From: Labilithrix sp.
GTDB taxonomy: Bacteria; Myxococcota_A; Polyangia; Polyangiales; Polyangiaceae
Direction of reading: 5' to 3'
Assembly: GCA_046351255.1 (NCBI GenBank)
Contig: JAXLYU010000014.1
Location: forward strand, 251,730 to 315,729
DNA: 64,000 nucleotides
In this document: piece after piece, positions 1 through 55,643 of the stretch
Layout of the letters: every line of letters starts with the position of its first letter
How positions within the stretch are numbered: position 1 is the first letter of the stretch
Program-made: the position numbers and the translations under genes
Notes under the pieces: generated by a model
The model's database searches: none
Seen by the model: only the letters and a program-made list of their open reading frames with translations
Told to the model about the DNA's origin: nothing

Positions 1-119
1 TCTCGATGCGCGGACGGTAGCGCGCGGAACACGCGATAGACGGCGCCGGCCTGGGCGCAGAGCTCCCGATCGGCGGCGCTCCCGGAGGCGATCGCGAGAT
101 CGAAGTCCTCTGCGCGATC

Positions 120-1910: not shown

Positions 1911-1991
1911 CGCAAGCGGCGCAGGCCGGCGCAAGCCCTGCGCACCGGCCCGATTGCGTCCGACCTCGCGCCCGACTACCCGTCGCGGCCG

Positions 1992-4297: not shown

Positions 4298-4361
4298 GGA
4301 TGCAGGTTCGATGCCGCCGCGCCCCGGTCGAGGTATACCGTCGCGCGTGAACGAAGCGCCG

Positions 4362-35802: not shown

Positions 35803-35940
35803 GGAGGCGAGACTACCCTTGTCGGGAACGGCCGCACCAGAGCGGCGACCTCGTTCGCCGAACCGTGCGGCAGGAGAGACGCGATCCGGGCCATCATCTG
35901 ACGACCGAAGGAGTGACCGGCACCAGCTAAGTGCGGGCGA

Positions 35941-37320: not shown

Positions 37321-37402
37321 CCCTGCAGGATACGGCTTAACTCGGCCGGCGCTTCAGATAGGTGAGAGGTTTTGGCGAAGGGAGTACGCTCTTCCGCGAG
37401 CG

Positions 37403-38806
37403 ATGGGTGGGCCGGACGCGGAGTACCGAGAGTGGGCGAAGCGCCGCGTCGGGTCGACGATCAAGGACACCTACCGCATCGATGACCTGATCGGCCTCGG
37501 CGGCATGGCCGCCGTCTTCGCCGCGACGCGTCGGGACGGGCGACGGGTCGCGCTGAAGATCCTCCATCCGGACCTCAACCAGCGTCCCGATCTGCGCACG
37601 CGCTTCCACCGCGAGGCGATGGCGGCGAACGCGGTGAAGCACCCCGGAGCGGTGGAGATCCTCGCCGACGACTTCACCGAGGACGGCGTCGCGTTCATCG
37701 TGATGGAGCTGCTCGACGGGCAGGTGGTCGAGTACCTGTGGCAAGCGCAGGGCAAGCGTCTACCGGCCCCCCTCGTGCTGGGGATCGCGCGTGAAGTGTG
37801 CGAGGTGCTCGTCGCAGCGCACCGCGCGGGCATCGTCCATCGCGACATCAAGCCCGAGAACCTCCTCCTCACGAACGACGGCCGCGTGAAGGTGCTCGAC
37901 TTCGGGCTCGCGCGCTTCCGCGACGCGGCCACGCCGAGCGACACGCACACCGGCATGGTCTTCGGGACGCCCGCCTTCATGCCGCCCGAGCAAGCGGCCG
38001 GGCGCACGAGCCAGATCGACGAGCGCACGGACCTCTGGGCGCTCGGGGCGACGATGTTCACGCTCCTCTCGGGCGAGGTCGTGCACGAAGGCGAGTCGCT
38101 GCAGCACATCGTCATGCTCGCCGCGTCGCTCCCCGCGCGCCCGCTCTCCGACGTCTTGCCCGACGCACATCCGGTGCTGGCGAACCTCATCGACCGCTCG
38201 CTCACGTGGGACAAGGACCTGCGCTGGCCGAACGCAGCTGCGATGCGCGACGCGATCTGCTCGGCGTGCCTCACGCTCTTCGGGGAGGAGCGTCCCGACC
38301 TCATGGGCGCGGACGATTTGACGATGTCGGCGCCGAAGCCGCGAGGCGCGGACGAGCACGAGGACGACGCGACCGGCAAGGATCAGACGCTCGCGACGAT
38401 CGAGCCGCCCGTCAGCGAGGAGGTCACCCAGCAGCATCGTTCGCATCCCATCATGCCGGTCGGGGATCAGACCGAGGCCACCGTCCTCGACGACGATCGG
38501 ACCGACGTGAACGTCCCTGCTGCGCCATCACCGGCGGAGGACGCGACCTCCGTGATGAACATCGACCTCCGCGGCTCCGCGTCCCGGGTGGAGGTCCGCT
38601 CCGACCTCGAGCGGAAGTCGGATCTGGACGCGGAGGCGGATATCCGTACCACCTCCATGCGGGCGCTGGCCCCGCGCGCGCCGAACCCGGCGATCCAGGT
38701 GAATCCCTCGAGGACCGTGATCTTGCCCTGGGTCCTCGCCGGGGTCGCCACGCTGGTGGCGCTGATCGCCGTCTACTTCGCCGTCACCGGTCGCCAGGCG
38801 CACTGA
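37403..38806 (+). CDS. Ser/Thr protein kinase with a C-terminal TM anchor
   Basis: LGGMAAVF, VALK, HRDIKPEN, DFG, PPE motifs. C-terminal hydrophobic helix ILPWVLAGVATLVALIAVYFAV. Confidence 0.85.
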   Translation: MGGPDAEYREWAKRRVGSTIKDTYRIDDLIGLGGMAAVFAATRRDGRRVALKILHPDLNQRPDLRTRFHREAMAANAVKHPGAVEILADDFTEDGVAFIVMELLDGQVVEYLWQAQGKRLPAPLVLGIAREVCEVLVAAHRAGIVHRDIKPENLLLTNDGRVKVLDFGLARFRDAATPSDTHTGMVFGTPAFMPPEQAAGRTSQIDERTDLWALGATMFTLLSGEVVHEGESLQHIVMLAASLPARPLSDVLPDAHPVLANLIDRSLTWDKDLRWPNAAAMRDAICSACLTLFGEERPDLMGADDLTMSAPKPRGADEHEDDATGKDQTLATIEPPVSEEVTQQHRSHPIMPVGDQTEATVLDDDRTDVNVPAAPSPAEDATSVMNIDLRGSASRVEVRSDLERKSDLDAEADIRTTSMRALAPRAPNPAIQVNPSRTVILPWVLAGVATLVALIAVYFAVTGRQAH

Positions 38807-38885
38807 CCGCTCGCCGCGCCTCGGCGACCGTTCACCGAACGAGTCGAGCACGGCCGCTCCGGCGGCCCTATCGATCAGGTGAGAG

Positions 38886-39986
38886 ATGGGAAGGTTCTTC
38901 TTGCGCGTCGGTGCCTGGCTGCTGGCCGTGCCCTACTTGCTGGCAGTGACGCTCGTCGTCACGGGCTCGCCGACCTGGTCCGCGATCGCCTACCTCCTCG
39001 CGCTTGGCCTGCTGATGGCCGGCCTCATGACGCTGCCCAGCGAGAAGGACGGGGCGCGCACCGTGTTCGGGAAGAAATGGCCGCGCGGCGTCTCGCGCGC
39101 GGGCCTGATCGCGATCTTCGCGGTCGTGTTCGTGCGGTGCTGCTCTGCCGGCTCGGGGGAGTCGCTCCACATGGCGACGTCGGCGCGTCTCGTCGATCGC
39201 CTCGTCGACGAGCAGGACGTCGCGCTCTCTGGGATGCGGGTCCTCTCGGGCGGACGCCTGCTCCAGGACGACAAGAAGGAGCTGCCGGGCGCGATGCGCG
39301 AGGCGTACGCGCAGATGCGCGACGAGCAGGGTGACGCGCCTTCGCCGTTCGTCGCGACCTACCTCGGCCTGCAGCGGCCGAGCGCGTACGACATGATCCT
39401 GGTCGATCCGCCGGGCCAGACACCGCCGACGACGGCGGTCGTGTTCCTCCACGGCTATGCGGGCAACTTCTCGCTGCCGTGCTGGCAGATCGCGCAAGCG
39501 GTGAAGGGGCTCGGCGTGCTCACGGCGTGTCCTTCGACGACCTTCGTCGGCGCCTGGGGCTCTGCGGATGGCGAAGAGACGGTGCGCGACGTGGTGAAGG
39601 TGCTGCGCGAGCGTGGCATCACGAAGATGGTGCTCGCGGGTCTCTCGAACGGCGGGTACGGCGCGTCGATGCTCGCGCCGAAGCTCGGGAGCACGTTTGC
39701 GGGCTACGTCTTCATCTCCGGTGTGGAAGACGACGCTGGTGTGGCGGGCGCCCCGGTGCTGCTCGTCCACGGCGCGCACGACTCGATGGCGGGTTACGGC
39801 GAGGCGGTCAGCTACCGGAGCAAGCACGCGAACGCGAAGCTCGTCACGCTGAACGCCGGCCACTTCGCGATGCTCGTCAAGCGCCCCGAGTTCGACAAGG
39901 CGCTGCGCGACTTCGTCGTTCACACCACGGGCGCTCGCGAGACGCTCGTGAGCGACTCGCGCATCAGGGCTGATCGGAGTCTTTGA
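38886..39986 (+). CDS. Membrane-anchored alpha/beta hydrolase (esterase-like)
   Basis: Three N-terminal TM helices. VVFLHGYAGN. Nucleophile elbow GLSNGG. C-terminal LVHGAHD His region. Confidence 0.7.
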   Translation: MGRFFLRVGAWLLAVPYLLAVTLVVTGSPTWSAIAYLLALGLLMAGLMTLPSEKDGARTVFGKKWPRGVSRAGLIAIFAVVFVRCCSAGSGESLHMATSARLVDRLVDEQDVALSGMRVLSGGRLLQDDKKELPGAMREAYAQMRDEQGDAPSPFVATYLGLQRPSAYDMILVDPPGQTPPTTAVVFLHGYAGNFSLPCWQIAQAVKGLGVLTACPSTTFVGAWGSADGEETVRDVVKVLRERGITKMVLAGLSNGGYGASMLAPKLGSTFAGYVFISGVEDDAGVAGAPVLLVHGAHDSMAGYGEAVSYRSKHANAKLVTLNAGHFAMLVKRPEFDKALRDFVVHTTGARETLVSDSRIRADRSL

Positions 39987-41115
39987 ACAGGTCGTCGTTG
40001 TCCGACGCGAACGGGATCGTCTGCGGCTCCGTGCAGTGTGCATCCGTCGTCACCACGTGGGCGCGACCTTCCGTGCTCGCCGTCCACTTCGTCTCGAGGG
40101 CGTCGGCGGAGCCCTTGGCGGTGGCCTCTTCCCAGACCTTCTGCGCCCAGTCGTGCATGCGCATCGGGTCGTAGATCGTGAACGGGACCTGGAACTCGTC
40201 GTCGTCGCCGCTCCAGGTCTTGAGCTTCTCGGTGCCCATGAGGATCGGCCAGCTGCTCGCGGGGATGGTCTCGCCGCCGGTCCAGAAGACGCTCTTGCCG
40301 TCGGGGCCGGGTGCGACGAGGTTCGAGCCCGTCGGATACGGATCGCCGTGGAACGCGTTCGCGATGCGCTTCGAGCCCGCGATCACGCTCTGCGTCCAGA
40401 GCGGCGTGAACTGCGAGCGGCGAAGCATGCCGGAGACGTCGACGACGTCCGCGCCGAAGATCGCGCAGCCGCCACCTTCGAAGCGGCGCGAGCGGAAGTC
40501 GCCGCCGTAGCGCTTGTACGCGCCGCTCTTCTCGTACGCCTGGTAGAACGACTTGACGCGCTTGCAGGTCGCGCCGTTGACGAGGATCGACATCTTCGCG
40601 AGGAGGCCGTTCTTCACGCGCAGGCGAATGTCCTCGAGCGCCGCGTCGCGCCCGCCCTCGGGCTGATCGTTGAGGTGACCGGGGAAGTCGCGGAGCAGGA
40701 GGCCGAAGCCGTCGACGGCCGCCTTCCACGACGTGGTCTCGCCGGTCTGACCGGTGAGGGGGATGCTCTCGCCTCCGCACTCGAGCTCGACGTTGACGTG
40801 ACCGATCGAGTGTCCGAGCTCGACGAGGCCCATCGCCTTCAGGGCGGACTCGCTGATCTCGCTCCGGATGGCCGTGTTGATGAGCGTGTTCGGCGTCGAC
40901 CAGTCGAGCGGCGTCGACGGCGGGATCAGGTAGAGGTTCAACTTGCCCGCGACGGGCTCGCTGCAGGAGGTCGGGTCGGCGGGACGATGCGGCGTCCACG
41001 CCGGTTCATTGAGCGCACTCTCGGACGTGATCGACTCCTCGGCCGGCGCGGAACAGGCGACCGCGAGACCGGCGACGGAGAGGCAGGCGATCAAGGTGGG
41101 GAAACGGGGGCTCAT
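39964..41115 (-). CDS. Hypothetical secreted lipoprotein
   Basis: Lipobox LAVACSA. 383 aa. No recognisable motif. Confidence 0.55.
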   Translation of the reverse strand: MSPRFPTLIACLSVAGLAVACSAPAEESITSESALNEPAWTPHRPADPTSCSEPVAGKLNLYLIPPSTPLDWSTPNTLINTAIRSEISESALKAMGLVELGHSIGHVNVELECGGESIPLTGQTGETTSWKAAVDGFGLLLRDFPGHLNDQPEGGRDAALEDIRLRVKNGLLAKMSILVNGATCKRVKSFYQAYEKSGAYKRYGGDFRSRRFEGGGCAIFGADVVDVSGMLRRSQFTPLWTQSVIAGSKRIANAFHGDPYPTGSNLVAPGPDGKSVFWTGGETIPASSWPILMGTEKLKTWSGDDDEFQVPFTIYDPMRMHDWAQKVWEEATAKGSADALETKWTASTEGRAHVVTTDAHCTEPQTIPFASDNDDLFKDSDQP

Positions 41116-41277
41116 GTGGGTGGGCAATGTCCCACTGATCCCGATCCGGTCAAGGAACTGCGCAGATAGAGACCTGAAATTTCTCCATTTGCGTCATTTT
41201 CGACACAACGCGTCGGGCGCAGCGACCCTTGCCGATTTTTCGCCCGTTTTTGGGACTGCGGGCGAGGATCCGCCTCC

Positions 41278-41775
41278 ATGAAACGGATCTCGATCCCCGC
41301 TCTTGCTGCCATTGCCATGCTTCTCGTTGCCTGCCCGAAGAAAGGCGGCGGCGCGGATGGCGGAATGGACGCTGACATTCCGACCGCAGATACGGCCGCC
41401 ACCACCGTCGATGCGGCCACCGGGACCGCCCCGACCCTCGCGACCGCCGCCAAGAAGGTCGTGAAGCCCGACGCCGGTGCGGACGGCGGCGCGGCGGGCG
41501 ACGCGGGCGCGGTGGCTGCGGGTGACGCGGGCGCGACCGCCGCCGACGCGGGGGCCACGGCGCAGACCTGCTGCTGCAAGGTCGGCGATGCGTACTCGAG
41601 CGGTGTCACGCAGAGCAACTGCGCCGGCACCATGAAGGGCGCGTGCGTCGCCAAGGAAGAGTGCGAGAAGCGCCAGTGCTGCTGCGATGCGGGCGGCAAG
41701 AAGTCGATCGCGATGCAGTCCGAGTGCACCAAGGCGATGAAGGGCAAGTGCGTTGCCAAAGACCAGTGCAAGTGA
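41278..41775 (+). CDS. Small lipoprotein with two CCC-containing Cys-rich repeats
   Basis: Lipobox LLVACP. G/A/D low-complexity linker. Internal repeat CCCKVGDAYSSGVTQSNCAGTMKGACVAKEECEK / CCCDAGGKKSIAMQSECTKAMKGKCVAKDQCK. Confidence 0.6.
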   Translation: MKRISIPALAAIAMLLVACPKKGGGADGGMDADIPTADTAATTVDAATGTAPTLATAAKKVVKPDAGADGGAAGDAGAVAAGDAGATAADAGATAQTCCCKVGDAYSSGVTQSNCAGTMKGACVAKEECEKRQCCCDAGGKKSIAMQSECTKAMKGKCVAKDQCK

Positions 41776-41816
41776 CGCTTACATAAGCGTGTAGACCGCG
41801 GCTGCGCGTCGGCGAC

Positions 41817-42944
41817 GTGGTAGGATCGGTCATGACGCCGACGCTGCCGCTCGAGACGATCGAGAAGCTTCCAAAGACCGATCTCCACGTCCATCTCGAC
41901 GGCTCGCTTCGTCTCTCGACGATCCTCGAGCTGGCCGAGAAAGCCCGCATCGAGCTCCCCGCCACGAACGAGGATGGCCTGCGCAAGGCCATGAACCTCG
42001 GTGAGAACTGCGGGTCACTCGTCGAGTACCTCAAGGCGTTCGACGTCACGCTCCGCGTCCTGCAAGACGCGGAGTCGCTGACGCGTGCGGCTTACGAGCT
42101 CGCCGAGGACGAGGCGAGAGAGAATGTAAGGTACATGGAAGTGCGCTACTCGCCGATGCTGCACACGCGGCGTGGCCTGAAGCTCACGACCGTCGTCGAG
42201 GCCGTGCTCGAGGGCCTTCGCGCCGCGCACGATCGCTACGGCATCGAGTCGAACGTCATCCTTTGCGGCATTCGCAACGTGTCACCGGAGAGCTCGCTCG
42301 AGATGGCGGAGCTCTGCGTCGCGTACAAGAACCGCGGCGTCGTCGGGTTCGATCTCGCGGGCGCCGAGTACGACCACCCCGCGAAGCACCACAAGGCGGC
42401 GTTCCAGCTCGTGCGCGACAACAACATCAACGTGACGATCCACGCCGGCGAAGCGTACGGCCCGGAGTCGATTCACCAGGCCATTCACCAGTGCGGCGCG
42501 CACCGCATCGGCCACGGCTGCCGTCTCCGCGAGGACGGTGACCTCCTCCACTACGTGAACGACCACCGCATCAGCCTCGAGTGCTGCCCCTCGTCGAACG
42601 TGCAGACGGGCGCCATTCGCGACCTCGCTAGCCACCCGATCAAGCTGTACAAAAACCTCGGCCTCCGCGTCACCGTGAACACGGACAACCGCCTCGTGAC
42701 CGACACGACCGTGTCGAAGGAGCTCTGGCTCTGTCACAAGGTGCTCGGCTTCACGCTCACGGATCTCAAGCAGGTCATCATGAGCGGCTTCAAGAGCGCG
42801 TTCCTGCCGTTCCACGTGAAGCAGCAATACGTGCGTCGCATCAGCGAGGAGCTGAAGTCCTTCGCAGATCCGGACAGCCCGATCGCGAGCGAGCTCGCCG
42901 CACCGATGCCGACCCCGAGCGCACCCGTGCCCTCGACGAACTGA
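41817..42944 (+). CDS. add: Adenosine deaminase
   Basis: HVHLDGS, HAGE and TVNTDN(R) metal/catalytic motifs of the ADA family. Its stop lies 1 nt before the rSAM start. Confidence 0.9.
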   Translation: MVGSVMTPTLPLETIEKLPKTDLHVHLDGSLRLSTILELAEKARIELPATNEDGLRKAMNLGENCGSLVEYLKAFDVTLRVLQDAESLTRAAYELAEDEARENVRYMEVRYSPMLHTRRGLKLTTVVEAVLEGLRAAHDRYGIESNVILCGIRNVSPESSLEMAELCVAYKNRGVVGFDLAGAEYDHPAKHHKAAFQLVRDNNINVTIHAGEAYGPESIHQAIHQCGAHRIGHGCRLREDGDLLHYVNDHRISLECCPSSNVQTGAIRDLASHPIKLYKNLGLRVTVNTDNRLVTDTTVSKELWLCHKVLGFTLTDLKQVIMSGFKSAFLPFHVKQQYVRRISEELKSFADPDSPIASELAAPMPTPSAPVPSTN

Positions 42945-42945
42945 G

Positions 42946-44229
42946 ATGAAGGATCCGCTCGAGGCCTCGGAGCGCGCCGCGATCCTCGCGCGGCCGCGGC
43001 CACGCCACGCGCTGCCCATCCTCGACGGTCCGCCGGAGCCCGGCGCGCCGAAGCGGCGGTACCTGCCGCTCGCCACGCCGCGCGAGTCGGATCGCGGGTT
43101 CGAGCCGCTCTTCGCGGTGTGGGAGGTGACGCTCCGCTGTGACCTCGCCTGCCGTCACTGTGGCTCGCGCGCCGGACGCGCGCGGCACGACGAGCTCTCC
43201 ACGGAGGAATGCGTCGATCTCGTTCGCCAGCTCGCCGGCATCGGCACCCGAGAGGTCGCGATCATCGGCGGCGAGGCGTACCTGCGCGACGACTGGACCA
43301 CGATCATTCGCGCCATCCGCGACCACGGCATGCGCGCCGTCATGACGACCGGCGGGCGCGGGCTGACCCCGGAGCGCGCGCGCGCGGCGAAGGAAGCTGG
43401 CCTCCAGGGGGTCAGCGTCTCGATCGATGGCGAGCGCGAGACGCACGATCGCCTGCGCGGCGTGAGCGGCTCCTACGACGCCGCGTTCGATGCGCTGCGG
43501 GCGCTGCGCGACGCGGGCATCAACGTCGCCACCAACACACAAATCAACCGGCTCACGATGCCGGAGATGCCACGCATGGTCGATCGGCTCGGCGACGCAG
43601 GCGTCCAGAGCTGGCAGATCCAGCTCACGGTGCCGATGGGCCGCGCCGCCGACGAGCCGGATGTGCTCCTCCAGCCGTACGACATGCTCGATCTCCATCC
43701 CATGCTCGCCGAGCTCGTCCCCGCCGCGAAGGCGCGTGGCATCGACGTCGTCGCCGGCAACAACGTCGGGTACTTCGGCCCGCACGAGTCGGCGCTCCGC
43801 GGGCGCACCCACTCGGGACACTCCGGGGGATGCGGCGCGGGTCGCGTCACGATCGGGATCGAGGCCGACGGGACGATCAAGGGCTGCCCGAGCCTCTCCA
43901 CCTCGACGTGGTCGGGAGGCAACGTGCGCGAGACCTCGCTCCAGGACATCTGGGAGCGCTCCACGGCCCTTCGCTACACGCGCGACCGGACCACGGAGGC
44001 GCTCTGGGGTTACTGCGCGTCTTGCTACTACGCCGACGAGTGCCGCGCGGGCTGCACGTGGACCGCCGACGTCATCTTCGGGAAGCCCGGGAACAATCCC
44101 TACTGCCACCATCGGGCGCTCGAGATGAAGAAGGCGGGCAAGCGAGAGCGGGTGGTCCAGGTCGAGGCCGCCCCGGGGCTGCCGTTCGACCACGGGCGAT
44201 TCGAATTGATCGAGGAGCCGATTGGATGA
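42946..44229 (+). CDS. Radical SAM / SPASM-domain enzyme (peptide-maturase-like)
   Basis: CxxxCxxC (CDLACRHC). Glycine-rich SAM motif region. C-terminal SPASM-type auxiliary-cluster cysteines (GGCGAGRVTIGIEADGTIKGCP ... CASCYYADECRAGC ... YCHH). Confidence 0.85.
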   Translation: MKDPLEASERAAILARPRPRHALPILDGPPEPGAPKRRYLPLATPRESDRGFEPLFAVWEVTLRCDLACRHCGSRAGRARHDELSTEECVDLVRQLAGIGTREVAIIGGEAYLRDDWTTIIRAIRDHGMRAVMTTGGRGLTPERARAAKEAGLQGVSVSIDGERETHDRLRGVSGSYDAAFDALRALRDAGINVATNTQINRLTMPEMPRMVDRLGDAGVQSWQIQLTVPMGRAADEPDVLLQPYDMLDLHPMLAELVPAAKARGIDVVAGNNVGYFGPHESALRGRTHSGHSGGCGAGRVTIGIEADGTIKGCPSLSTSTWSGGNVRETSLQDIWERSTALRYTRDRTTEALWGYCASCYYADECRAGCTWTADVIFGKPGNNPYCHHRALEMKKAGKRERVVQVEAAPGLPFDHGRFELIEEPIG

Positions 44230-44624
44230 ACACTCGAAGGATGGCGAAGCTTCACCCCTGCTCGGCGTGCGCACGGCACTTCAGGATCGCCGAGGCGATC
44301 TGCCCGTTTTGTGGCGCGGCCGCGGCCTCGTCGGTCTCGGGCGGAAAGCCGCTGCCGGTCGGGTCCGCCCTCACGCGCGCCGCGGTCGTCTTTGCGGTCA
44401 GCGCTGCGGCGGCGGCCTGCACGGGCGGCGGCGACGAGAACACGAGCTCCTCGGGCGGCTCGTCGACCAGCGGCGGCACCTCGACGTCGAGCGGCGGCTC
44501 GTCTTCGTCCTCGAGCGGCAACACGAGCGGCGCGGTCCCGGCCTACGGCGTCCCTGCGTTCGATGCCGGGACGAGCAGCGGCAACGCGCCGGCCTACGGC
44601 GTGCCGCCCACCGACGGCGGCTGA
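44226..44624 (+). CDS. Small protein: N-terminal CxxC...CxxC zinc-ribbon-like motif, hydrophobic segment, Ser/Gly-rich tail
   Basis: Start overlaps the rSAM stop (ATGA). CSAC-x12-CPFC. AAVVFAVSAAAAAC. SSSGGSSTSGG... tail with two PAYGVP repeats. The coding call rests on the coupling and frame. Confidence 0.5.
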   Translation: MNTRRMAKLHPCSACARHFRIAEAICPFCGAAAASSVSGGKPLPVGSALTRAAVVFAVSAAAAACTGGGDENTSSSGGSSTSGGTSTSSGGSSSSSSGNTSGAVPAYGVPAFDAGTSSGNAPAYGVPPTDGG

Positions 44625-44628
44625 GCGG

Positions 44629-45942
44629 CTACTGGCACTGGCCGCTGCACCGGGCGGCCTTGCACGTCGTGAGACGCTTGTAGAGTGCATCCGTATCGCA
44701 GCCCGCGGTCTCCGGGTTGCGCGTGCAGCGGTAGCAGTGACCGTCGCGCCCGCACGCGTCCTGCTCCGCGCAGCAGCCGCCGTTCATACAAGTGTTGCAC
44801 GCGCTGGGACCGGCATCGCCGGACGTCGCCTGCATCACCATTCCGCACTCCGGGACCGCGGCGCACGTCGTGTCGCCCGCGCACTGCGTCTCGCACGCGT
44901 TGCACGCGCAGTAGACGAGGGAGTGGTTGTACTTCGCGGCGCCGAACGGGAACTGGACTCCGCACTGCTTCTTGCAGTCGTCGCTCGCGCCCGCGTCGCC
45001 GCCGGCGCTGACGCACGCGGAGAGGCAGGTGCGGAGGCCGTTGCACTGCGCGTCGTTGTAGCAAGCGCGGCGGGCCTCGCCGCACGCGTTGGCGCCCGAG
45101 GTCGCCGTCTTCTTGCAAAGATCGCAGCTCGGCGCGGGGGCCGGCTTCGACATGATGCCCTGGAAGAACGCCTTGTGTGCGCTCGCGCGGACGCTGTAGC
45201 CGACGCCGACGCACGGCTCGTAGACGTACGAGTGGACCGCCGCGACGTACTCCTTGCCGCCGACCGTGACGAGGACGGGGCCGCCGCTGTCGCCGTGGCA
45301 GATGTCGCCGTTGTTGTCGTAACGGACGCCGACCGCGGTCGCGGAGAGGCTCGCGACGGTGCCGTCGATGCGATTCTTCAGCATGTTCGGACCCGCGTCC
45401 GTCTGGACGTCGGGACGGATGGTCATGCCCCAGCCGACGGACGTGACGCGCGTCTGGCCCTGCACCAGGTTGTCCGGGCTCAGCATCGGCACGACGGGCG
45501 TGTTCGCGTCGACTCCGATGACGCGGATCATCGCCACGTCGTACGGCGAGGTGGTCGCGCCGTTGTAGCTCGGGTGCTCGTAGTGATCGATGAACCCGTA
45601 CGAGACGAGCGTGGCGCTCGCCTTCTTGTCGTTGCCCTGCGTGATGGAGACGGAGGTCGCCTTGATCGTGCAGTGCGCAGCGGTGAGGACGTAGCCGATC
45701 TTCGTCGCCGGATCGACCGACACCATCGTGCCCGTGCAGCCCGAGTACTCGTCCTTGCCGCCGGGGCCTGGCTTCGTCATCGTGAGCGCCACGACCGCCG
45801 GGTGCCCCGTGTCACGCGAGCCGTTGATGATCGGCTCCGTCGTGTCCACGACGGGCACGTCGTCCTCGCTCGTGCTGACGGAGCACGCGACGGCGAGTGG
45901 GACAGCGGAGATGGCGATGAAGGCGAGGAGGCGGGCGAGCAC
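44629..45942 (-). CDS. Secreted S1 serine protease with a Cys-rich C-terminal domain (paralog 1)
   Basis: Signal/lipobox LAVACS. Catalytic TAAHC, DVAM, GDSGGPV. About 160-aa C-terminal domain with ~28 Cys after an APAPS linker. Confidence 0.8.
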   Translation of the reverse strand: MLARLLAFIAISAVPLAVACSVSTSEDDVPVVDTTEPIINGSRDTGHPAVVALTMTKPGPGGKDEYSGCTGTMVSVDPATKIGYVLTAAHCTIKATSVSITQGNDKKASATLVSYGFIDHYEHPSYNGATTSPYDVAMIRVIGVDANTPVVPMLSPDNLVQGQTRVTSVGWGMTIRPDVQTDAGPNMLKNRIDGTVASLSATAVGVRYDNNGDICHGDSGGPVLVTVGGKEYVAAVHSYVYEPCVGVGYSVRASAHKAFFQGIMSKPAPAPSCDLCKKTATSGANACGEARRACYNDAQCNGLRTCLSACVSAGGDAGASDDCKKQCGVQFPFGAAKYNHSLVYCACNACETQCAGDTTCAAVPECGMVMQATSGDAGPSACNTCMNGGCCAEQDACGRDGHCYRCTRNPETAGCDTDALYKRLTTCKAARCSGQCQ

Positions 45943-46039
45943 GAGGGGCGCTCTCTCTACACTCTGGAATGCGCTCGGGCCCTGAACTTTCCGAATGAGA
46001 CGCGGTCGAAAGGTGGGGGAACTGTGTCCGCCTCGCGAC

Positions 46040-47371
46040 TCAGTTCGTCGGACACTCCGTCGCGCACTTGGTCGCCCGACACGAGCGAACCGCGTCGAGC
46101 ATCGCGTTCGATGCGCATTCTGCGGCGCCCGGATTTTTCATGCAGAACGAGCAGTGACCGTCCGACGCGCACGCTGACTCCTCTGCACAGCAACCACCCT
46201 CCATGCAACCGTTGCAGGTTGCATCGGCGAACTTCATCCCGCACCGGGGAGCCGCCGCGCACTGCGTGTCGCCGCTGCACGCGGAGTCGCACTCGTTGCA
46301 GGAGCAGAACGCGATCTGGCTCTGGTATGGACCGACGCCGTACGGGAACTGCGCGACGCACGCCTTTTGACAGTCGGCGGAGGCGCCCGCGTCGCCGCCC
46401 GTCGTCGACGAGCAACGACCGAGGCACTTGGCGAGGCCACCACACTGCTCGTCGTCCAGGCACTTGCCACGCGCGACGGCGCAGGTCTGCGTGCCGGAGA
46501 GGCTCTTCTTCCGGCAGAGCTCGCACGTCTCGGCGGGCGCCGGCGCGTTGATGATCGACCTGTAGAACGCGATCTGCGCGCTCGCGCGGACGCTGTAGCC
46601 TTGGCCCACGCAGTCGCCCGTGACGAAAGAGTGCACGCCCGCGACGTACTCCTGGCCGTTGACGACCGTGAGCACGGGACCGCCGCTGTCACCATGGCAG
46701 ATGTCGCCGTGGTTGTCGTAGGTGACGCCCATCTGCTGCGAGGTGAGGCGCGTGACGGTGCCGCTGATGCGGTTCTTCGCCGTGTTCATGCCGGCGTCGA
46801 CGTGCGAGTTGGGGCGTGTCGTCTGGCCGAAGCCGACCGACGTGACGCGCGTCTGGTTCTGGCTCATCTGGTCGGGCGAGAGCACGGGCACCACGGGCGT
46901 GGTGGCGTCGACGCCGAGGATGCGGACCATCGCGACGTCGTACGGCGACGACGTCTGGCCGTCGTATTGCGGATGTGCCTTCGCGTCGAGGAACGCGTAG
47001 GAGGCGATGCCGGTGGCGGACGAGAAGTCGTTCCCCGAGAGCACCTGGATCGTCGTCGCGTTGCGGACGCAGTGACCGGCCGTGAGCACGTAGCCGACCT
47101 TCGTGGTGGGGTTCGTGCTGATGATGGTCCCCGTGCAGAGGGCGAAGTTCGGGCGCGTCGAGCCTGGGTCGGGCGGGAGCGTCATCTGGAGGAGGACGAC
47201 GGCGGGATGCCCCGTGTCCTTCGAGCCCGTGATGATCGGCTGGTCCTGACCCACCGCGACCTCGGGGACGAGGCCATCGTGCGAGTCGCCGCTCCCCACC
47301 GAGCACGCCAGCGGGAGAGCAAAGAGAGAAGCCAGCGCCAGAGCACGCTTGGTGGATCGGGGTAGGACCAT
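46040..47371 (-). CDS. Secreted S1 serine protease with a Cys-rich C-terminal domain (paralog 2)
   Basis: Signal/lipobox LPLACS. TAGHC, DVAM, GDSGGPV. Same Cys-rich C-terminal architecture as paralog 1 (e.g. GGDAGASxDCxKxC conserved). Confidence 0.8.
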   Translation of the reverse strand: MVLPRSTKRALALASLFALPLACSVGSGDSHDGLVPEVAVGQDQPIITGSKDTGHPAVVLLQMTLPPDPGSTRPNFALCTGTIISTNPTTKVGYVLTAGHCVRNATTIQVLSGNDFSSATGIASYAFLDAKAHPQYDGQTSSPYDVAMVRILGVDATTPVVPVLSPDQMSQNQTRVTSVGFGQTTRPNSHVDAGMNTAKNRISGTVTRLTSQQMGVTYDNHGDICHGDSGGPVLTVVNGQEYVAGVHSFVTGDCVGQGYSVRASAQIAFYRSIINAPAPAETCELCRKKSLSGTQTCAVARGKCLDDEQCGGLAKCLGRCSSTTGGDAGASADCQKACVAQFPYGVGPYQSQIAFCSCNECDSACSGDTQCAAAPRCGMKFADATCNGCMEGGCCAEESACASDGHCSFCMKNPGAAECASNAMLDAVRSCRATKCATECPTN

Positions 47372-47613
47372 GGGGTCCGATGTACTGACGCATAATGCAA
47401 CATGCGGCAAGTGCCCCGCAGCACCTACACCCTTTCCAAAGTGGAAAAGCGCGCGGTGCGATCGAATGGCCGGCCCGGGGAGGGCACGATCGGCTTCGAC
47501 ATGCTTCTTCCCCGGGAAGAAATCCGCTAGGTAGCTCGTTCGCCGCGGGCCAGGGGTCACTTTGGCTCACGGCACTTAGGGTTTTTACGGAGGATTCAGT
47601 GTCCACCGACGTG

Positions 47614-48711
47614 ATGATCTACGCGAGTGGCCTGTCGAAGCGTTACGGCTCGTACAAGGCGCTCGATGACGTCAGCTTCGAAGTCAACAAGGGAGAGGTC
47701 GTGGGATTCCTCGGGCCGAACGGCGCCGGGAAATCGACGACGATGCGCATCCTCACGTGCTTCATCTCGCCGACGGGCGGGACGGCCAAGGTGCGCGGTC
47801 ACGATGTCTTCGATGACACCCTCGCGGTCCGCGCCTCGCTCGGCTACCTGCCCCAGCGCGCTCCCCTCTACCTCGAGATGACGGTGCTGGAGTACCTCCA
47901 GTTCGCCGCGCGCATCCGCAACATCGATGCGTCGAAGTTCAAGGAGCGCGCCCGCGCCGTCGTCGAGATCTGCGGCCTCGCGCAGTCGCTGTCGAAGGAG
48001 ATCCGCCAGCTCTCTCACGGCTATCGCCAGCGCGTCGGCCTCGCGCAGGCCCTCATCCACGATCCGCCCATCCTCATCCTGGACGAGCCCACGTCGGACC
48101 TCGACCCGAACGAGCGCACCGAGTTTCTCAACTACCTCAAGCAGATCGGCAAGGACCGCACCGTCCTCCTGTCGACCCACAACTTGAAGGAAGTCGAAGC
48201 GGCCTGCGCGCGCGCGATCATCGTCTCTCGAGGTCGCGTCGTCGCCGACGGTCCGCTCGACGAGATCCGCGCCAAGTCCGGCCGCGTTCGCTACGTCGTC
48301 TCCGTTCAGGAGTCGACCGGCGAGTCGCCGTACCGCGGCCGCGGCCAGCTCCCGCGCCAGGCCGAGGTCGAGTCCGCGCTGAACAACCTCGCCGGCGTGA
48401 AGAAGGTCACCGAGCTCCCCACCGACGAGCGCGCGCACTCGTACGAGCTGTCCGGTGACGACGCCATCGATCTCCGCCCCGAGCTCTTCCGCCTCATCGC
48501 GGACAAGGGGTGGGTCCTCCTCGAGCTTCACCGCGATACGCAGACCCTCGAAGACGTGTTCCGCCACCTCACGATCGGTGACGAGCGCCGCAACCGCCAG
48601 CTCGGCGGCAAGGAAGCGCCTGCGCCCGTCGAGGACGAGGAAGACGAGGACGAGGAAGAAGACGAAGAGGACGAAGAAGAAGAGTCCGACGACGACGAGG
48701 AAGAAAAATGA
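47614..48711 (+). CDS. ABC-transporter ATP-binding protein (GldA-like, ABC-2 type) with a poly-acidic C-terminal tail
   Basis: Walker A GPNGAGKST. Signature LSHGYRQR. Walker B ILILDEPT. C-terminal EDEEDEDEEEDEEDEEEESDDDEEEK. The start was chosen at MIYASGL (a GTG at 47599 is also possible). Confidence 0.85.
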   Translation: MIYASGLSKRYGSYKALDDVSFEVNKGEVVGFLGPNGAGKSTTMRILTCFISPTGGTAKVRGHDVFDDTLAVRASLGYLPQRAPLYLEMTVLEYLQFAARIRNIDASKFKERARAVVEICGLAQSLSKEIRQLSHGYRQRVGLAQALIHDPPILILDEPTSDLDPNERTEFLNYLKQIGKDRTVLLSTHNLKEVEAACARAIIVSRGRVVADGPLDEIRAKSGRVRYVVSVQESTGESPYRGRGQLPRQAEVESALNNLAGVKKVTELPTDERAHSYELSGDDAIDLRPELFRLIADKGWVLLELHRDTQTLEDVFRHLTIGDERRNRQLGGKEAPAPVEDEEDEDEEEDEEDEEEESDDDEEEK

Positions 48712-49673
48712 GCTCCGAGACGATCGAGAAGGACGAGAAGAAGAAGAAGGCGCTCGCCGCGGCGGCGCGCGAAGAAGAGGAAGACGAAGAGGAGTCGGAC
48801 GAGGAAGAGTCCGACGACGACGAGTCGGACGAGGACGACGACGACGCGGCCACGCGGCCGATGAAGTCGAGCGACGTCGCCAGCGGATCGACCGGATCGA
48901 AGGAGAAGGTCGTCATCGACCGTCCGTCATCGCTCTCGATGATCTGGACGATCGCGCGGCGCGAGCTCGACGGCTACTTCAACTCCGTCATCACGTACAT
49001 CGTCATCTCGGCGAGCATGGTCGGTCTCGGCCTGTTCTTCTACATGTACAAGGGCGGCTTCTGGCAGGTCGACCGCGTCACCATGCAGCGCATGTTCGAC
49101 TTCCTGCCGTTCGCGCTCTGCGCCCTCGTGATCCCGCTGTTCACGATGCGCGCCCTCTCGGACGAGAAGCGCGTCGGTACGATCGAGCTCCTCATCACGA
49201 TGCCGGTGAAGGACTCCGAGGTCATCCTCGGCAAGTACGTCGCCGCGCTCGCCATCCTCACGGTGCAGCTGTTCCTCGTCGTGCTCTACCCGCTCGCGAT
49301 GTTCAAGTGGCCGTGGCACCTCGGCGAGCTCGACTGGGGCGCCTTCTGGGTCGGCATGCTCGGCTTGTTCTGCCTCTCCGCGACGGGCGTCGCGATGGGC
49401 CTGATGTACTCGAGCTTCACCGACAGCCAGATCCTCTCGTTCTTCGCGACGATGCTGACCCTGACCCTGCTCTACGCGATCGGTCAGGTCTCCGCCGTCG
49501 AATCTCTCCAGGGCTGGCCGGGCGACGCGATCGCCTTCATCAGCCTCCAGTCGCGCTTCGAGCCCTTCGCGCGCGGCCTCATCGATTCACGTGCGATCGT
49601 CTACTTCGTATCGATCGCCGTGCTTTGCCTGCTCGTCGCGTTCCACGCGCTCGAGCGCCGGAAGTGGAGCTGA
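48708..49673 (+). CDS. ABC-2 family permease (GldF-like) with a poly-acidic N-terminal extension
   Basis: Six predicted TM helices. N-terminal EEEEDEEESDEEESDDDESDEDDDD. Overlaps the ATPase stop. Confidence 0.8.
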   Translation: MSSETIEKDEKKKKALAAAAREEEEDEEESDEEESDDDESDEDDDDAATRPMKSSDVASGSTGSKEKVVIDRPSSLSMIWTIARRELDGYFNSVITYIVISASMVGLGLFFYMYKGGFWQVDRVTMQRMFDFLPFALCALVIPLFTMRALSDEKRVGTIELLITMPVKDSEVILGKYVAALAILTVQLFLVVLYPLAMFKWPWHLGELDWGAFWVGMLGLFCLSATGVAMGLMYSSFTDSQILSFFATMLTLTLLYAIGQVSAVESLQGWPGDAIAFISLQSRFEPFARGLIDSRAIVYFVSIAVLCLLVAFHALERRKWS

Positions 49674-49679
49674 TCCGCC

Positions 49680-51539
49680 ATGGCCATGGAACGTAAGAAG
49701 AAGGCCGCCACCGAGAGCGGCGCCCTCCTGTTCATCATCGCCGCGATCGTCGTCGGCGTGAACACGCTCAGCTACTTCATGTACGTCCGCAAGGACATGA
49801 CGAAGGCCGAGAAGTACACGCTGTCCGAGGGCAGCGGTCGCCTCATCCGCTCGATCAAAGACGGCGAGCAGATCAAGGTCGACGCCTACGTCACGAAGGG
49901 TCTGCCGAAGCTCGACGCCTTCGTGCGCGACCTTCGCGACCTCCTCCAGCAGTACAAGGACGCGGGCAAGGGCAAGTTCGACTACACGATCATCGAGCCC
50001 AAGACCGAAGAGGAGCGCAAGAAGGCGGAAGAAGCCGGCCTCCAGAAGCTCCAGCGCGTCGAAGGCTCGGACACGGAAGACAAGGCGGAAGTGGCCCAGG
50101 GCTACATGGGCCTCGTCTTCACCTACAAGACCCAGCGCGAGAAGATCCCGGTCCTCTCGCCCGACAACAACACGGGCCTCGAGTTCTGGATCACGAACAA
50201 GATCCGCGAGCTCAAGGACGCGGGCGACAAGACGAAGCACAAGCTCGGCGTCATGACCGGCCACGAGGAGATCAAGCTCTCCGAGCCGAACCTCGTCCCG
50301 GGCCAGGGCCGTCAGGGTGGTCCGACCATCCAGGCCATCATCGGCCAGTACTTCCCGTTCTACGAGATCAAGGACGTCGATCTGAAGAACGGCGACGCCG
50401 AGATCGACGAGTCGCTCGACGGCCTACTCATCACGCAGCCGAACAAGGAGTTCACCGAGAAGGAGCTCCGCCGCATCGACCAGTTCGTGATGCGCGGCAA
50501 GTCGCTCGCGATCCTCGCCTCCGCCGTCAACACGAAGGCGGGCGACGCGACGATGAACGCGAAGCTCGACACGCACGGCCTCGAGAAGCTCACCGAGGGC
50601 TACGGCATCATCATGCACAAGGACGTCGTCCTCGACTTCGGGCGCTCCTTCCGCGTCCGCGTCGACACGATGACGGGCCCGCGCACGATGATCTTCCCGC
50701 AGATCCTCGACGTCCGCGAGGACTCGCGCTTCACGGGTGACGAGGTCCTCCTCGACACGAGCTTCGCCGCGTTCTTCCGCATCCCGCAGGCGTCGTTCCC
50801 GTTCGCTTCGTCCCTCGAGATCAAGAAGGACAAGCAGCCCCAGCTCGGCGACAAGCTCCGCGCGATCGCGCACTCGACGCCGGCCGCCATCGTCGAGACT
50901 GGCGACACGGTCGACCTCAAGCCCGCGCGCCAGTGGCGTCCGAAGGGCAACTTCCAGCAGTTCACGCTCGCCGCGGCCGCGGAGGGCAAGCTCAAGACGG
51001 CGTTCCCGACGGGCGACAAGATGGGCGTCGAGACGCCGGCCGAGGCGGCGAACAACGCGCGCGTACTCGTCCTCTCGTCCGCGCAGTTCTTCGCCAATCC
51101 GTTCGTTCGCTCGGGCCAGGGCCCGGACATGGGCGGTCAGATGGCGATGATGATGGGCAACGCAGGCGGCGACGAGTTCCTCAACTCGGTCGCAGGCCCG
51201 TACGTTCAGCTCATCGGCACCACGTTCATCCTCCAGACGAAGAACCTCCTCGACTGGATGACGGGTGACGTCGACCTGCTCGCCGCTTCCGCCAAGATCC
51301 TCCAGGAGCCGAACCTCGCGTACGGCGACGTCGTGAAGCCGAAGGCCGGCGAGGAGATGACGGAAGAGCAGCTCAAGAAGGAAGAAGACCGCATCAAGAA
51401 GGAGCGCAAGACGAAGCAGTACTGGATCGAGGGCACCATGACCCTCGGCATCCCGCTGCTCTTCATCGCCGTCGGCGTCCTCCTCTGGCAGGTCCGCGAA
51501 GGCCGCCGCAAGAACGCGGTCGCACTCCTCCAAGCGTAA
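49680..51539 (+). CDS. GldG-family ABC-associated auxiliary protein
   Basis: N- and C-terminal TM anchors flanking a large periplasmic domain, as in GldG. Follows the ABC-2 permease. Confidence 0.75.
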   Translation: MAMERKKKAATESGALLFIIAAIVVGVNTLSYFMYVRKDMTKAEKYTLSEGSGRLIRSIKDGEQIKVDAYVTKGLPKLDAFVRDLRDLLQQYKDAGKGKFDYTIIEPKTEEERKKAEEAGLQKLQRVEGSDTEDKAEVAQGYMGLVFTYKTQREKIPVLSPDNNTGLEFWITNKIRELKDAGDKTKHKLGVMTGHEEIKLSEPNLVPGQGRQGGPTIQAIIGQYFPFYEIKDVDLKNGDAEIDESLDGLLITQPNKEFTEKELRRIDQFVMRGKSLAILASAVNTKAGDATMNAKLDTHGLEKLTEGYGIIMHKDVVLDFGRSFRVRVDTMTGPRTMIFPQILDVREDSRFTGDEVLLDTSFAAFFRIPQASFPFASSLEIKKDKQPQLGDKLRAIAHSTPAAIVETGDTVDLKPARQWRPKGNFQQFTLAAAAEGKLKTAFPTGDKMGVETPAEAANNARVLVLSSAQFFANPFVRSGQGPDMGGQMAMMMGNAGGDEFLNSVAGPYVQLIGTTFILQTKNLLDWMTGDVDLLAASAKILQEPNLAYGDVVKPKAGEEMTEEQLKKEEDRIKKERKTKQYWIEGTMTLGIPLLFIAVGVLLWQVREGRRKNAVALLQA

Positions 51540-51549
51540 GGAAAACGAG

Positions 51550-52599
51550 ATGAGCTCCAGCACGAAGCTTTACGTGGGCGTGATCGTCCTCGCCGGTCTC
51601 GGCGGGGCGATCTACATGGCGCAGAAGAAGGACAAGGAGATCGGCTCGACGACGACGTCGGCGGCCGAGCTCCCCGAGATCAAGGCGCCTGACGACATCG
51701 ACAAGGTCGTCATCCAGAACGGCGAGAAGACCGAGGTCACCCTCGAGAAGAAGGGCGACAAGTGGGAGATGACGAAGCCCGTCAACGCTCCCGCGAATCA
51801 GTCCAACGTCGACTCGGTGGTGAAGAACCTGAAGGAGCTGAAGGCGAAGGAGGTCATCCTTCCGACGCCGACGGAGGACTCCAAGAAGGACTACGACTTC
51901 ACCAAGGAGAAGCAGGTCCACGTCCAGGCCTTCAAGGGCTCGGAGAAGAAGACCGACATCACCTTCGGTGGCTCGGGTCAGCGCGGTCAGATGGCGACGA
52001 TCGACGGCAAGCAGCCGATCTACGGCGTCACCGGCTACTCGTCCTACCTCTACACGCGCGACGTGAAGGGCTTCCGCGAGACGGAGATCTTCAAGTTCGA
52101 CGACGCGAACGCGAACTCCCTCGTGATCGAGAAGAAGGGTGAGAAGAAGCCCGAGGTCCTCTCGTTCACGAAGGACGGCGATCACTGGGCCGGTACGTTC
52201 AACGGCAAGGCGATCGAGCGCTTCGACGAAGACAAGGTGAAGGACGCGGTCCGCGCGTTCAAGTCGCTCACCGCGGACGACTTCGGCGACGGCAAGACGG
52301 AGGCCGAGACGGGCCTCGACGAGCCGGACGCGAAGGTCACGATCAAGCTGAAGGACGGCGCGGGTCAGTACGCGTTCCGCGTGGGCAAGGTGGCGAACGG
52401 CACCACGCGCTACGCGAAGCGCGAGGACTCGCCGACGATCTACACGCTCCCCGCGTTCACCGCCGACTGGGCGGTCGCGCCCGAGTCGAAGTTCCAGAAG
52501 GCGGCCGACGCCGGCGCGCCGAAGGACGGCGGCGCCAAGAAGGCGGGCGGCGACGACCACGGCGATCCGCACGGTCACGGCGATCCGCACGGTCACTGA
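51550..52599 (+). CDS. DUF4340-like periplasmic protein with a His-rich C-terminus
   Basis: N-terminal TM helix. K/E-rich beta-domain repeats. C-terminal DDHGDPHGHGDPHGH. DUF4340 proteins commonly follow GldG homologs. Confidence 0.65.
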   Translation: MSSSTKLYVGVIVLAGLGGAIYMAQKKDKEIGSTTTSAAELPEIKAPDDIDKVVIQNGEKTEVTLEKKGDKWEMTKPVNAPANQSNVDSVVKNLKELKAKEVILPTPTEDSKKDYDFTKEKQVHVQAFKGSEKKTDITFGGSGQRGQMATIDGKQPIYGVTGYSSYLYTRDVKGFRETEIFKFDDANANSLVIEKKGEKKPEVLSFTKDGDHWAGTFNGKAIERFDEDKVKDAVRAFKSLTADDFGDGKTEAETGLDEPDAKVTIKLKDGAGQYAFRVGKVANGTTRYAKREDSPTIYTLPAFTADWAVAPESKFQKAADAGAPKDGGAKKAGGDDHGDPHGHGDPHGH

Positions 52600-52632
52600 G
52601 GCGCGAGCCAGAGCGGGATCAGGGATCAGCCT

Positions 52633-53295
52633 CTACGGCGCTTCCGGGTCCTGCTGGCAGCACGAGCCTGGCAACGGCGGCGGGGTCGTGCGGGTACAGA
52701 CGGTGTGACAGCGGTCCTCGCCGCAGCTGGCCGAGGACTCGCTGGCAGACGCGAGCGCGCCGCTCGAGCAGTGAATCACGATGTCGCGCGCCTCGACGGC
52801 GAATCCGATGTCCTTGCCGCAGTACCAGATGTCGGTCGCCGTTTTGTCCGGGCAGTTCGCGCACTGGCTCGGCGTCGACCCGTTGACCGACGCGCACCCC
52901 ATCGCGCAGTGACGAACACAGGTCGCCGTCCCTTCGGAATCGCATTCGATGAGGTCGGTGGGCTCGAGCCCTTTGGGAACGGACGGAAGCTCGCTCGCGC
53001 AGATCGATCGCTTGGAGGTGGTGCAGTCGAGGTTGTTGAAGTCGACCTGCGGGTCGCAGGGGGGTGGATACGCCGTGGACGAGCCGCTGCTGCTCGAGCT
53101 CGTCGAGCTGGTAGCCGCATCGCCGCTCGAGGAGGAACCGCTCGCACCGCTCGTGCTCGATGCGCCGCTGCTCGAGCCGTCGGGGGCAGCGGCATCGGCG
53201 ACGGGATCCTCCGTGGAGCCGTAATCGGTGCAGTGAAGCAACGTCGCGAACGCGAACGCGAACCCGAGCGGTACGATGACGGTCGAGCGAATCAT
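52633..53295 (-). CDS. Cys-rich secreted protein, tandem family member 1
   Basis: Signal peptide. S/G-rich linker. ~115-aa domain with 16 Cys including CVRHCAMGCA...WYCGKD...SCC. Confidence 0.65.
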   Translation of the reverse strand: MIRSTVIVPLGFAFAFATLLHCTDYGSTEDPVADAAAPDGSSSGASSTSGASGSSSSGDAATSSTSSSSSGSSTAYPPPCDPQVDFNNLDCTTSKRSICASELPSVPKGLEPTDLIECDSEGTATCVRHCAMGCASVNGSTPSQCANCPDKTATDIWYCGKDIGFAVEARDIVIHCSSGALASASESSASCGEDRCHTVCTRTTPPPLPGSCCQQDPEAP

Positions 53296-53984: not shown

Positions 53985-54054
53985 AGGTGGGCAAGCCTAG
54001 CTCCATCCGCCAGAACCGCACGTTCTGGCTGGCGATTGCGCCGCTAACGCAGAA

Positions 54055-55346: not shown

Positions 55347-55643
55347 CGACTCGAATTCTAGCGTACGGGAGGGGTCGTCGCTCATTTCCCGAGGTCGAGA
55401 ATCAGGTGGGCCGTTTCGCGGCCATTTCCTCGACAAAGCACGTGAATCTCGTTGTCGCGGCTCAGGCCCGCGACACGCCTCGAGGACGACCGCGTCGACC
55501 TCATCGAGGGCGCAGGCGCAGCCGCCGAGCCGGTCGCACGCCCAGCGTCTCATCTATCCACATGAGAATGGCGTGTATCGGTCGCGGCGCACGACATCTG
55601 TGCGGGTTCTCCGTCCCCTTGGGTGTGCTAACTAGGCGTATCG

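Follow-up and report, generated by a model that had tools for sequence, protein, structure and literature searches.

Two described systems lie close to the proteases considered here. VesB of Vibrio cholerae is a GlyGly-CTERM surface protease (PMC11980579), and a surface-display pathway involving myxosortase (MrtX) and the type II secretion system (T2SS) has been described in Myxococcota (PMC11980579). The terms ‘trypsin’ and ‘cysteine-rich’ do not occur in the texts of PMC11980579 and bioRxiv 10.1101/2023.06.07.544157, and the protease family discussed below is mentioned in neither. This family is approached through two neighboring genes, P1 and P2, located in a stretch of 64,000 nucleotides (the window) from the genome of Labilithrix sp. 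(Myxococcota; Polyangia; Polyangiales; Labilitrichaceae; contig JAXLYU010000014.1). The evidence makes it probable that P1 and P2 are old tandem paralogs encoding exported serine endopeptidases, each extended by a helical domain held together by disulfides, and that the radical S-adenosylmethionine (rSAM) enzyme encoded next to them belongs to a separate cassette. The novelty lies in the accessory domain of ~165 aa with 13 predicted disulfides, which is predicted to be all-helical and is without a curated family or a solved structural relative.

As a consequence of a GC content of ~68%, the window contains many spurious open reading frames (ORFs), and real genes were picked by their codon-position GC. 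P1, read from its ORF and translation, is a complete gene of 437 aa with a GTG start on the minus strand (44629-45942, stop codon 44629-44631). P2, on the same strand, is a complete gene of 443 aa with an ATG start (46040-47371, stop codon 46040-46042), and its open frame extends to 47560. The GC content at third codon positions is high in both (0.85-0.89, with 0.89 for P1), which identifies them as real genes. Their translations are exactly those of two NCBI entries from the Labilithrix sp. metagenome-assembled genome (MAG), on a contig of 367 kb, namely MFO0740273.1 (‘trypsin-like serine protease’) for P1 and MFO0740274.1 (‘S1 family peptidase’) for P2. The two proteins share 53% identity over 408 aa (E 2e-160), and each contains 31 Cys, distributed as 26 in the C-terminal domain, four in the protease domain and one in the signal peptide. 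The original prediction for this stretch had recognized adjacent same-strand paralogs with a common S1 triad, exported and carrying an unusual Cys-rich appendage. This description is borne out by the ORFs, the signal peptides, the Pfam Trypsin matches and the 26-Cys tails, and the three motifs that it listed (GGDAGASxDCxKxC, CNxCxxxCxGDTxCAAxPxCGM and GGCCAE) are all found in both P1 and P2. Its C-terminal domains of ~160 aa with ~28 Cys are indeed Cys-rich, but the count has to be corrected to 26 in each, over ~165 aa.

The catalytic part of P1 and P2 is an ordinary S1A protease. In P1 the protease domain covers aa 38-266 (45145-45831, minus strand), starts at Ile38 in the sequence IING and contains His90, Asp135 and Ser219; in P2 it covers aa 46-276 (46544-47236, minus strand), starts at Ile46 and contains His100, Asp145 and Ser229. 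Both score above the gathering cut-off (20.6 bits) of Pfam Trypsin (PF00089), with 61.0 bits for P1 and 79.0 bits for P2, and the catalytic His, Asp and Ser occur in canonical order, with TAAHC and GDSGGP motifs. In an alignment of 58 relatives, Cys20, Ile38, Gly41 and Asp135 (P1 numbering), the GD-GG of the active-site motif and most Cys of the C-terminal domain are invariant, while His90 and Ser219 are kept in at least 90%. From this alignment, AlphaFold2 (AF2) models full-length P1 with a mean predicted local distance difference test score (pLDDT) of 89.4 and a predicted template modeling score (pTM) of 0.86; over residues 40-270 the block-mean pLDDT is mostly >90, with one 20-residue stretch near 77. 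The fold predicted for the catalytic half is the chymotrypsin double beta-barrel, and Foldseek aligns it with chymase, granzyme, elastase and trypsin (E ~1e-12, target TM score 0.72-0.82, ~250 columns). Among PDB entries, Vibrio VesB is the one most similar to P1 in sequence (E 1.1e-6).

The residue at the position of chymotrypsin 189, in the S1 pocket, distinguishes the two proteins from most of their relatives. It is Asp in both P1 (Asp213) and P2, within the sequence GDICHGDSGGP, and among 83 scored homologs the same Asp is found only in P0001, P0003 and P0118, whereas 73 of the 83 have Gly. Because of this Asp, the P1/P2 clade probably cuts after Lys or Arg. At the other end of the proteins, signal peptides are recognized from sequence. 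That of P1 (45883-45942, minus strand) terminates in the lipobox-like ...PLAVA-C20 and that of P2 (47303-47371, minus strand) in ...LPLA-C23, the latter Cys aligning with the invariant Cys of the family. By eye, PLAVA-C in P1 fits the looser PROSITE lipobox pattern, and LPLA-C in P2 has Pro at -3.

The Cys-rich domain follows the protease domain directly. It occupies aa 267-437 of P1 (44632-45144, minus strand), where the family hidden Markov model (HMM) matches with E 4.5e-31, and aa 277-443 of P2 (46043-46543, minus strand; E 6.4e-34), and all 26 Cys align between the two proteins. In P1 it is composed of an N-subdomain with 15 Cys (C273-C366) and a C-subdomain with 11 Cys (C382-C436). The latter, referred to here as the C-module, makes up the last ~60 residues and follows the spacing C-x2-C-x4-CC-x5-C-x2-D-x2-C-x2-C...C...C...C; CxxC, CC and CxC motifs are all present in the domain. 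Comparison with known modules, which the original prediction had proposed along with structure prediction, places the domain apart from them. At E<=10 no Pfam family matches the domain of P1 and only noise (FRG2, 0.073) is obtained with that of P2; no NCBIfam family covers it, and no PDB entry matches its confident predicted model. Modeled alone from 24 sequences, the domain is predicted by AF2 to be all-alpha, with twelve helices and no strands (pLDDT 90.2, pTM 0.81).

The chemistry of this domain can be read from the way in which its Cys are lost. Across 89 aligned sequences, conservation reaches 97% or more in 20 of the 26 Cys columns, and the remaining six vary strictly pairwise: C310 and C323 are absent together in the same 17/17 sequences, C397 and C403 in the same 14/14, and C382 and C436 in three. 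This paired loss, together with export of the proteins and the even Cys count, argues for a domain stapled by disulfides, 13 of which are predicted, and not for metal sites. The appendage had first been described as ‘disulfide- or metal-rich’, and the disulfide half of this description is the better supported one. Comparison of the two subdomains by hhalign gives a weak match (76% probability over 28 columns) and a collinear weaker segment; given this similarity, the domain may be an ancient duplication of one module.

The extent of the family was established by scanning 1.84 billion cluster representatives (50%-identity clusters) exhaustively with HMMER and a three-sequence profile. The Cys domain is found in 123 representatives at E<=1e-3 and in 40 at E<=1e-10, and 87 of the matches are full-length. 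In most of the matching proteins, which are 450-600 aa long, the domain spans approximately residues 255-420. A GDSGGP-type motif is present in 85 of 122 matches (the frameshifted copy of the window locus being excluded), and the C-terminus of 68 of these 85 protease-bearing relatives is made up of a Cys motif, a hydrophobic helix and an Arg-rich tail. When such tails were compared with sorting-signal models, TIGR03901 (MYXO-CTERM) was the top-scoring model in six of seven and exceeded its cut-off in three of seven. No tail of this type (Cys motif, helix and basic tail) exists in P1 and P2, which end in ...CSGQCQ and ...CATECPTN, respectively. P1, P2, P0001 and P0003-P0006 all stop directly after the Cys domain and have a ‘GGDAGAS’-type insert in common. 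The C-module also occurs in two to five tandem copies in protease-free, lipoprotein-like proteins (P0012, P0042, P0051 and P0062), and these have no Pfam or NCBIfam domain.

The domain could at first sight be taken for a great rarity. A word-indexed search of 5.8 billion proteins with the Cys domain returned two matches only, namely a fragment from a metagenome with 73% identity and a frameshifted version of the window locus (ERZ1714336 contig_612), and a genome scan with the single protein P1 as query gave no match. The 123 representatives of the HMMER scan overturned the idea of extreme rarity. Genome loci were collected from one-genome-per-species contigs by means of a degenerate DNA pattern, made by hand for the spacing C-x2-C-x4-CC-x5-C-x2-D-x2-C-x2-C, which matches both window genes and is found in 0/100 shuffles. 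The pattern occurs at >=119 loci, of which >=64 are confirmed by the family HMM; the 55 of 119 listed loci without this confirmation are mostly chance matches in other phyla. The 64 confirmed listed loci carry the labels Polyangiaceae, Polyangia, Myxococcales/Myxococcota, Labilithrix (L. luteola), Minicystis rosea, Byssovorax and Sandaracinaceae, the rest being labeled more broadly as (delta)proteobacterial MAGs, and none is assigned to another phylum. The full two-subdomain domain is present in 20 of the listed loci and is preceded by an S1 protease in 19 of them. The combination of protease and Cys domain is thus a family of Myxococcota, chiefly Polyangia. The original prediction had considered it lineage-specific, which does not apply to an architecture so broad in Myxococcota/Polyangia (123 representatives, ~85 of them with protease motifs).

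The tandem arrangement is another matter. A single protease copy is found at all 22/22 other loci that have one, and the nearest homologs of P1 and P2 are singletons. P1 shares 53% identity with P2, 54% with P0003, which occurs as a singleton, and 78% with P0001, a fragment of an ortholog, and P2 branches at the base of the P1/P2 clade. Since P1 is as far from P2 as it is from P0003, the duplication is, on sequence divergence, an old one. A lineage-specific duplication had been suggested; the tandem pair is indeed seen only in this lineage, but the event was not recent.

Next to P1, and convergent with it, lies the cassette of the rSAM/SPASM enzyme. This enzyme, recognized by Pfam, is encoded on the plus strand (42946-44229). 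Its closest NCBIfam models describe families of peptide maturases; TIGR04103 gives 524 bits and TIGR03913 gives 500 bits, and neither score reaches the cut-off of its model. A small ORF of 132 aa (44226-44624, plus strand) follows, its start overlapping the rSAM stop (ATGA). It encodes an N-terminal CxxC...CPFC zinc ribbon, one transmembrane (TM) helix, a Ser/Gly-rich linker and two ‘PAYGVP’ motifs, and the ribbon is weakly similar to the C-terminal extension of TIGR03913 (E 0.002-0.16). As the original prediction had it, P1 converges with this rSAM/small-ORF pair, with 4 nt from the small-ORF stop (44624) to the P1 stop codon (44629-44631).

The meaning of this proximity was assessed from both sides. 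On the rSAM side, a metagenome scan provided 80 loci (L123-L202, about 500 kb in all) with rSAM homologs that are 56-83% identical. A homolog of the small ORF is detected by tblastn in 68 of them; its position is usually directly downstream, and two to four copies in tandem are frequent. These cassette genes, one to four in tandem, encode a CxxCxRHV...CPFC ribbon, one TM helix, a low-complexity linker and a repeated xYGxP(P) motif. An S1 protease is present in 0/80 of these loci, and the Cys-domain HMM gives one clear match (L131) and one weak match (L127). At L123, where the rSAM gene is the most similar one (83% identity), protease and Cys domain are both missing within 6 kb. On the protease side, rSAM is found in 0/20 listed genome loci with the full Cys domain, and no Radical_SAM gene occurs in the neighborhoods of P0003 and P0130 (±8 kb), P0004, P0005 and P0006, where the neighbors are unrelated and the protease is present in a single copy. 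The adjacency of the rSAM gene to the proteases is therefore local and is not supported as a functional link. The view of the Cys modules as substrates of the rSAM enzyme, drawn from position, fails because co-occurrence is lacking in both directions. The conserved partner of the rSAM enzyme is the small zinc-ribbon/TM/YGxP protein, a candidate for an undescribed family of rSAM substrates or partners; no paper was found under the names TIGR03913 and TIGR04103.

Given these data, a coherent scheme can be proposed for P1 and P2. Their layout comprises a putative lipoprotein-type signal peptide ending at Cys, a short pro-linker, the S1A domain and the ~165-aa helical domain with its 13 predicted disulfides. 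The proteins would be exported by Sec through this signal, with possible lipidation at the N-terminus, and the Cys domain would fold oxidatively outside the cytoplasm. By analogy with S1A biology, the chain would then be cut on the N-terminal side of the invariant Ile, Ile38 in P1 and Ile46 in P2, which opens the motif I-[IV]-x-G (IING, the equivalent of IVGG). The new N-terminus would pair with Asp218 (chymotrypsin Asp194) and turn the enzyme on, as in zymogens of the chymotrypsin family. The same activating cut would also free the enzyme from its N-terminal anchor. P1, P2 and their closest clade, which are without MYXO-CTERM, would in this way be released and would cleave after Lys or Arg, while most relatives would stay on the cell surface. 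The Cys domain itself would most likely act as a rigid, protease-resistant stalk or a binding module between catalytic domain and anchor, because it is located between the two in most relatives and because the C-module is an autonomous repeat elsewhere. Its function would be comparable to that of the C-terminal Ig-fold domain of VesB, whose position is analogous.

Several observations weigh against this scheme. The Pro at -3 in P2 departs from the usual lipobox, which makes lipidation of P2 uncertain. Immediately ahead of the presumed activation site there is Pro (in P1 and P2) or Ala, so that an enzyme specific for Lys/Arg could not activate itself and another protease would have to make the cut. 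The role most likely filled by the Cys domain is deduced from position and analogy only. Lastly, two of the 64 listed Cys-module genome loci, L029 and L101, do carry the rSAM/zinc-ribbon cassette. In L029, from a Polyangia MAG, a zinc-ribbon/TM/‘AAYGPPP’ protein is fused to two Cys modules (3903-4712, minus strand), and in L101 a Cys-module lipoprotein (81-2093, minus strand) comes after the zinc-ribbon gene. To these is added L131, where an N-subdomain-like lipoprotein (5702-6190, minus strand) is encoded convergently to the cassette, an arrangement also found in the window. The three loci were partly ascertained through the Cys module itself, which is abundant in these genomes, and the association, weak and concerning the module and not the proteases, may reflect chance plus ascertainment. 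A functional tie between the Cys-stapled module and the rSAM/zinc-ribbon-TM-YGxP cassette, beyond the role of a generic stalk, is decidedly unlikely. If it existed, the module would be an extracellular partner or cargo of rSAM-modified membrane-anchored proteins, and P1 and P2 would be proteases recruited there.

A more direct involvement of the rSAM/SPASM enzyme, in which it would modify the Cys domains of the proteases before export, for example by thioether or other cross-links, was also considered. Enzymes of this type are able to modify full-size exported proteins, as anaerobic sulfatase maturases do. The genes adjoin, with 4 nt between convergent stop codons, the nearest families of the enzyme are peptide maturases (although at scores below their cut-offs), and a Cys-module protein is beside or fused to the small protein of the cassette at the three loci just described. 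Such a modification is nevertheless extremely improbable when none of the 80 rSAM loci has an S1 protease and only one or two have any Cys-domain match, and when rSAM is missing both from the 20 listed full-domain loci and from the surroundings of P0003, P0130, P0004, P0005 and P0006. The enzyme moreover has a translationally coupled partner of its own, through the ATGA overlap, which is retained in 68 of 80 loci, and the Cys pattern of the proteases is like that of ordinary disulfide pairs.

Two other alternatives concern the Cys domain alone. It packs 26 Cys into about 165 aa, with CxxC, CC and CxC motifs among them, and this very high density could be that of a metallothionein-like module binding Zn, Cu or an Fe-S cluster. 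This is very unlikely for proteins exported by a signal peptide into an oxidizing extracytoplasmic compartment. The even number of Cys and their strictly paired loss (17/17, 14/14 and 3) are the signature of disulfides and not of three- or four-ligand sites, the helical fold is confidently predicted without a cofactor, and no invariant His, Asp or Glu ligand columns exist except for a weakly conserved Asp400. The domain might also be a removable pro-domain, or an intramolecular inhibitor or chaperone, that is clipped in the mature enzyme. C-terminal pro-domains are common in secreted bacterial proteases, the pTM of the full-length model suggests a fixed packing of the two domains, and the clade of the window ends right after the domain, without an anchor. 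In most relatives, however, the domain precedes the MYXO-CTERM anchor, and its removal would release the enzyme and defeat the purpose of the anchor; in addition, the tandem C-modules of the protease-free proteins (P0012, P0042, P0051 and P0062) point to an autonomous structural or binding module. Clipping is thus rather unlikely, and a disulfide-held domain that stays with an exported protease is the reading preferred here.

The surroundings of the two genes complete the picture of the locus. Between the convergent ends of the small ORF and P1 (44624-44631) there is no intergenic room for a terminator, and none was found there. In the scan of 44100-47700, no promoter-like sites were detected, and the four terminator-like sites all lie within coding sequence. 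Divergent from P2, a four-gene operon (47395-52599, plus strand) encodes an ABC ATPase, an ABC-2 permease, an ABC_transp_aux (GldG-like) protein with DUF7088 and a DUF4340 protein. The annotated start of the ABC ATPase is only 23 nt from that of P2, and for this reason the true start of one of the two genes is probably further in. The same locus is present in a public long-read metagenome (ENA ERZ1714336 contig_612, L001), which corresponds to 34437-53936 of the window with 89% identity and 1389 gap positions over 20 kb; frameshifts break up the genes called on it, and P0002 is a garbled P1.

Other Cys-containing lipoproteins of the window proved to be of a different kind. Four tandem paralogous lipoprotein genes (52633-55553, minus strand; 35-46% identity) encode proteins with a linker rich in Ser and, at the C-terminal end, a region of about 12-14 Cys, and they have no Pfam or NCBIfam match. 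The original prediction had suggested aligning them with the C-terminal domains of the proteases. They are unrelated, with no family-HMM match at E<=10 and only uncorrected BLAST noise, and in the whole window the HMM matches only P1 and P2. A ‘CCC’ lipoprotein of 165 aa (41278-41775, plus strand), just upstream of the adenosine deaminase and rSAM genes, is made up in its C-terminal part of two repeats of ~33 aa, with CCC at the start of each (TCCCKVGD.../QCCCDAGG...). This lipoprotein matches no family, is not beside any of the 80 rSAM homologs and was rejected as a relative of the Cys domain for want of an HMM match at E<=10. The adenosine deaminase gene (PF00962, 328 bits; from 41817, plus strand) ends 1 nt before the annotated rSAM start; since no adenosine deaminase is beside rSAM in the 80 related loci, this coupling is local. 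Further away, a predicted lipoprotein of 387 aa (39964-41127, minus strand) has no Pfam or NCBIfam match.

As a finding about proteases, this one is modest and not mechanistically surprising. The Cys domain, found in >100 sequence clusters, restricted to Myxococcota and mostly to Polyangia, merits the definition of a domain family and a structure, and it may help to explain how extracellular hydrolases are displayed or stabilized in soil bacteria with large genomes. The reading of the locus as one of ribosomally synthesized and post-translationally modified peptides is removed, and the rSAM/zinc-ribbon/YGxP cassette is probably the more promising lead and arguably the more interesting one.

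Comparison with known systems situates P1 and P2 among several traditions of secreted proteins. Like the proteins handled by MYXO-CTERM and myxosortase (PMC11980579; bioRxiv 10.1101/2023.06.07.544157), the family has the corresponding tail in 68 of 85 protease-bearing relatives and covers the same taxonomic range (Myxococcia and Polyangia); P1, P2, P0001 and P0003-P0006 differ in ending right after the Cys domain. With the myxo_disulf_rpt module (Pfam DUF4215, as in TraA), the domain shares the character of a Cys-rich, repeated extracytoplasmic module restricted to myxobacteria, but neither the domain of P1 and P2 nor the tandem-module proteins have a Pfam or NCBIfam match (E up to 0.1-10), and a helical fold is predicted. 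With S1A peptidases (MEROPS S1A, PF00089), P1 and P2 share the Pfam match, the order of the triad, GDSGGP, two disulfides in the catalytic domain, the predicted double beta-barrel, an IVGG-like mature N-terminus (IING/IITG) and Asp at position 189; unlike them, they have a putative lipoprotein-type signal peptide and a 26-Cys helical C-terminal domain. A further parallel is VesB of V. cholerae (PDB 4lk4), a type II-secreted protein in which a pro-peptide, an S1 domain and an accessory domain are likewise arranged in this order and followed by a C-terminal tripartite tag, as in most relatives of P1 and P2. The tag of these relatives is MYXO-CTERM and not GlyGly-CTERM, and P1 and P2 are without any tag. 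The accessory domain of VesB has a beta-rich Ig-like fold and is placed between the protease and the GlyGly-CTERM/rhombosortase anchor, whereas the accessory domain here is a helical one, predicted to be stapled by disulfides.

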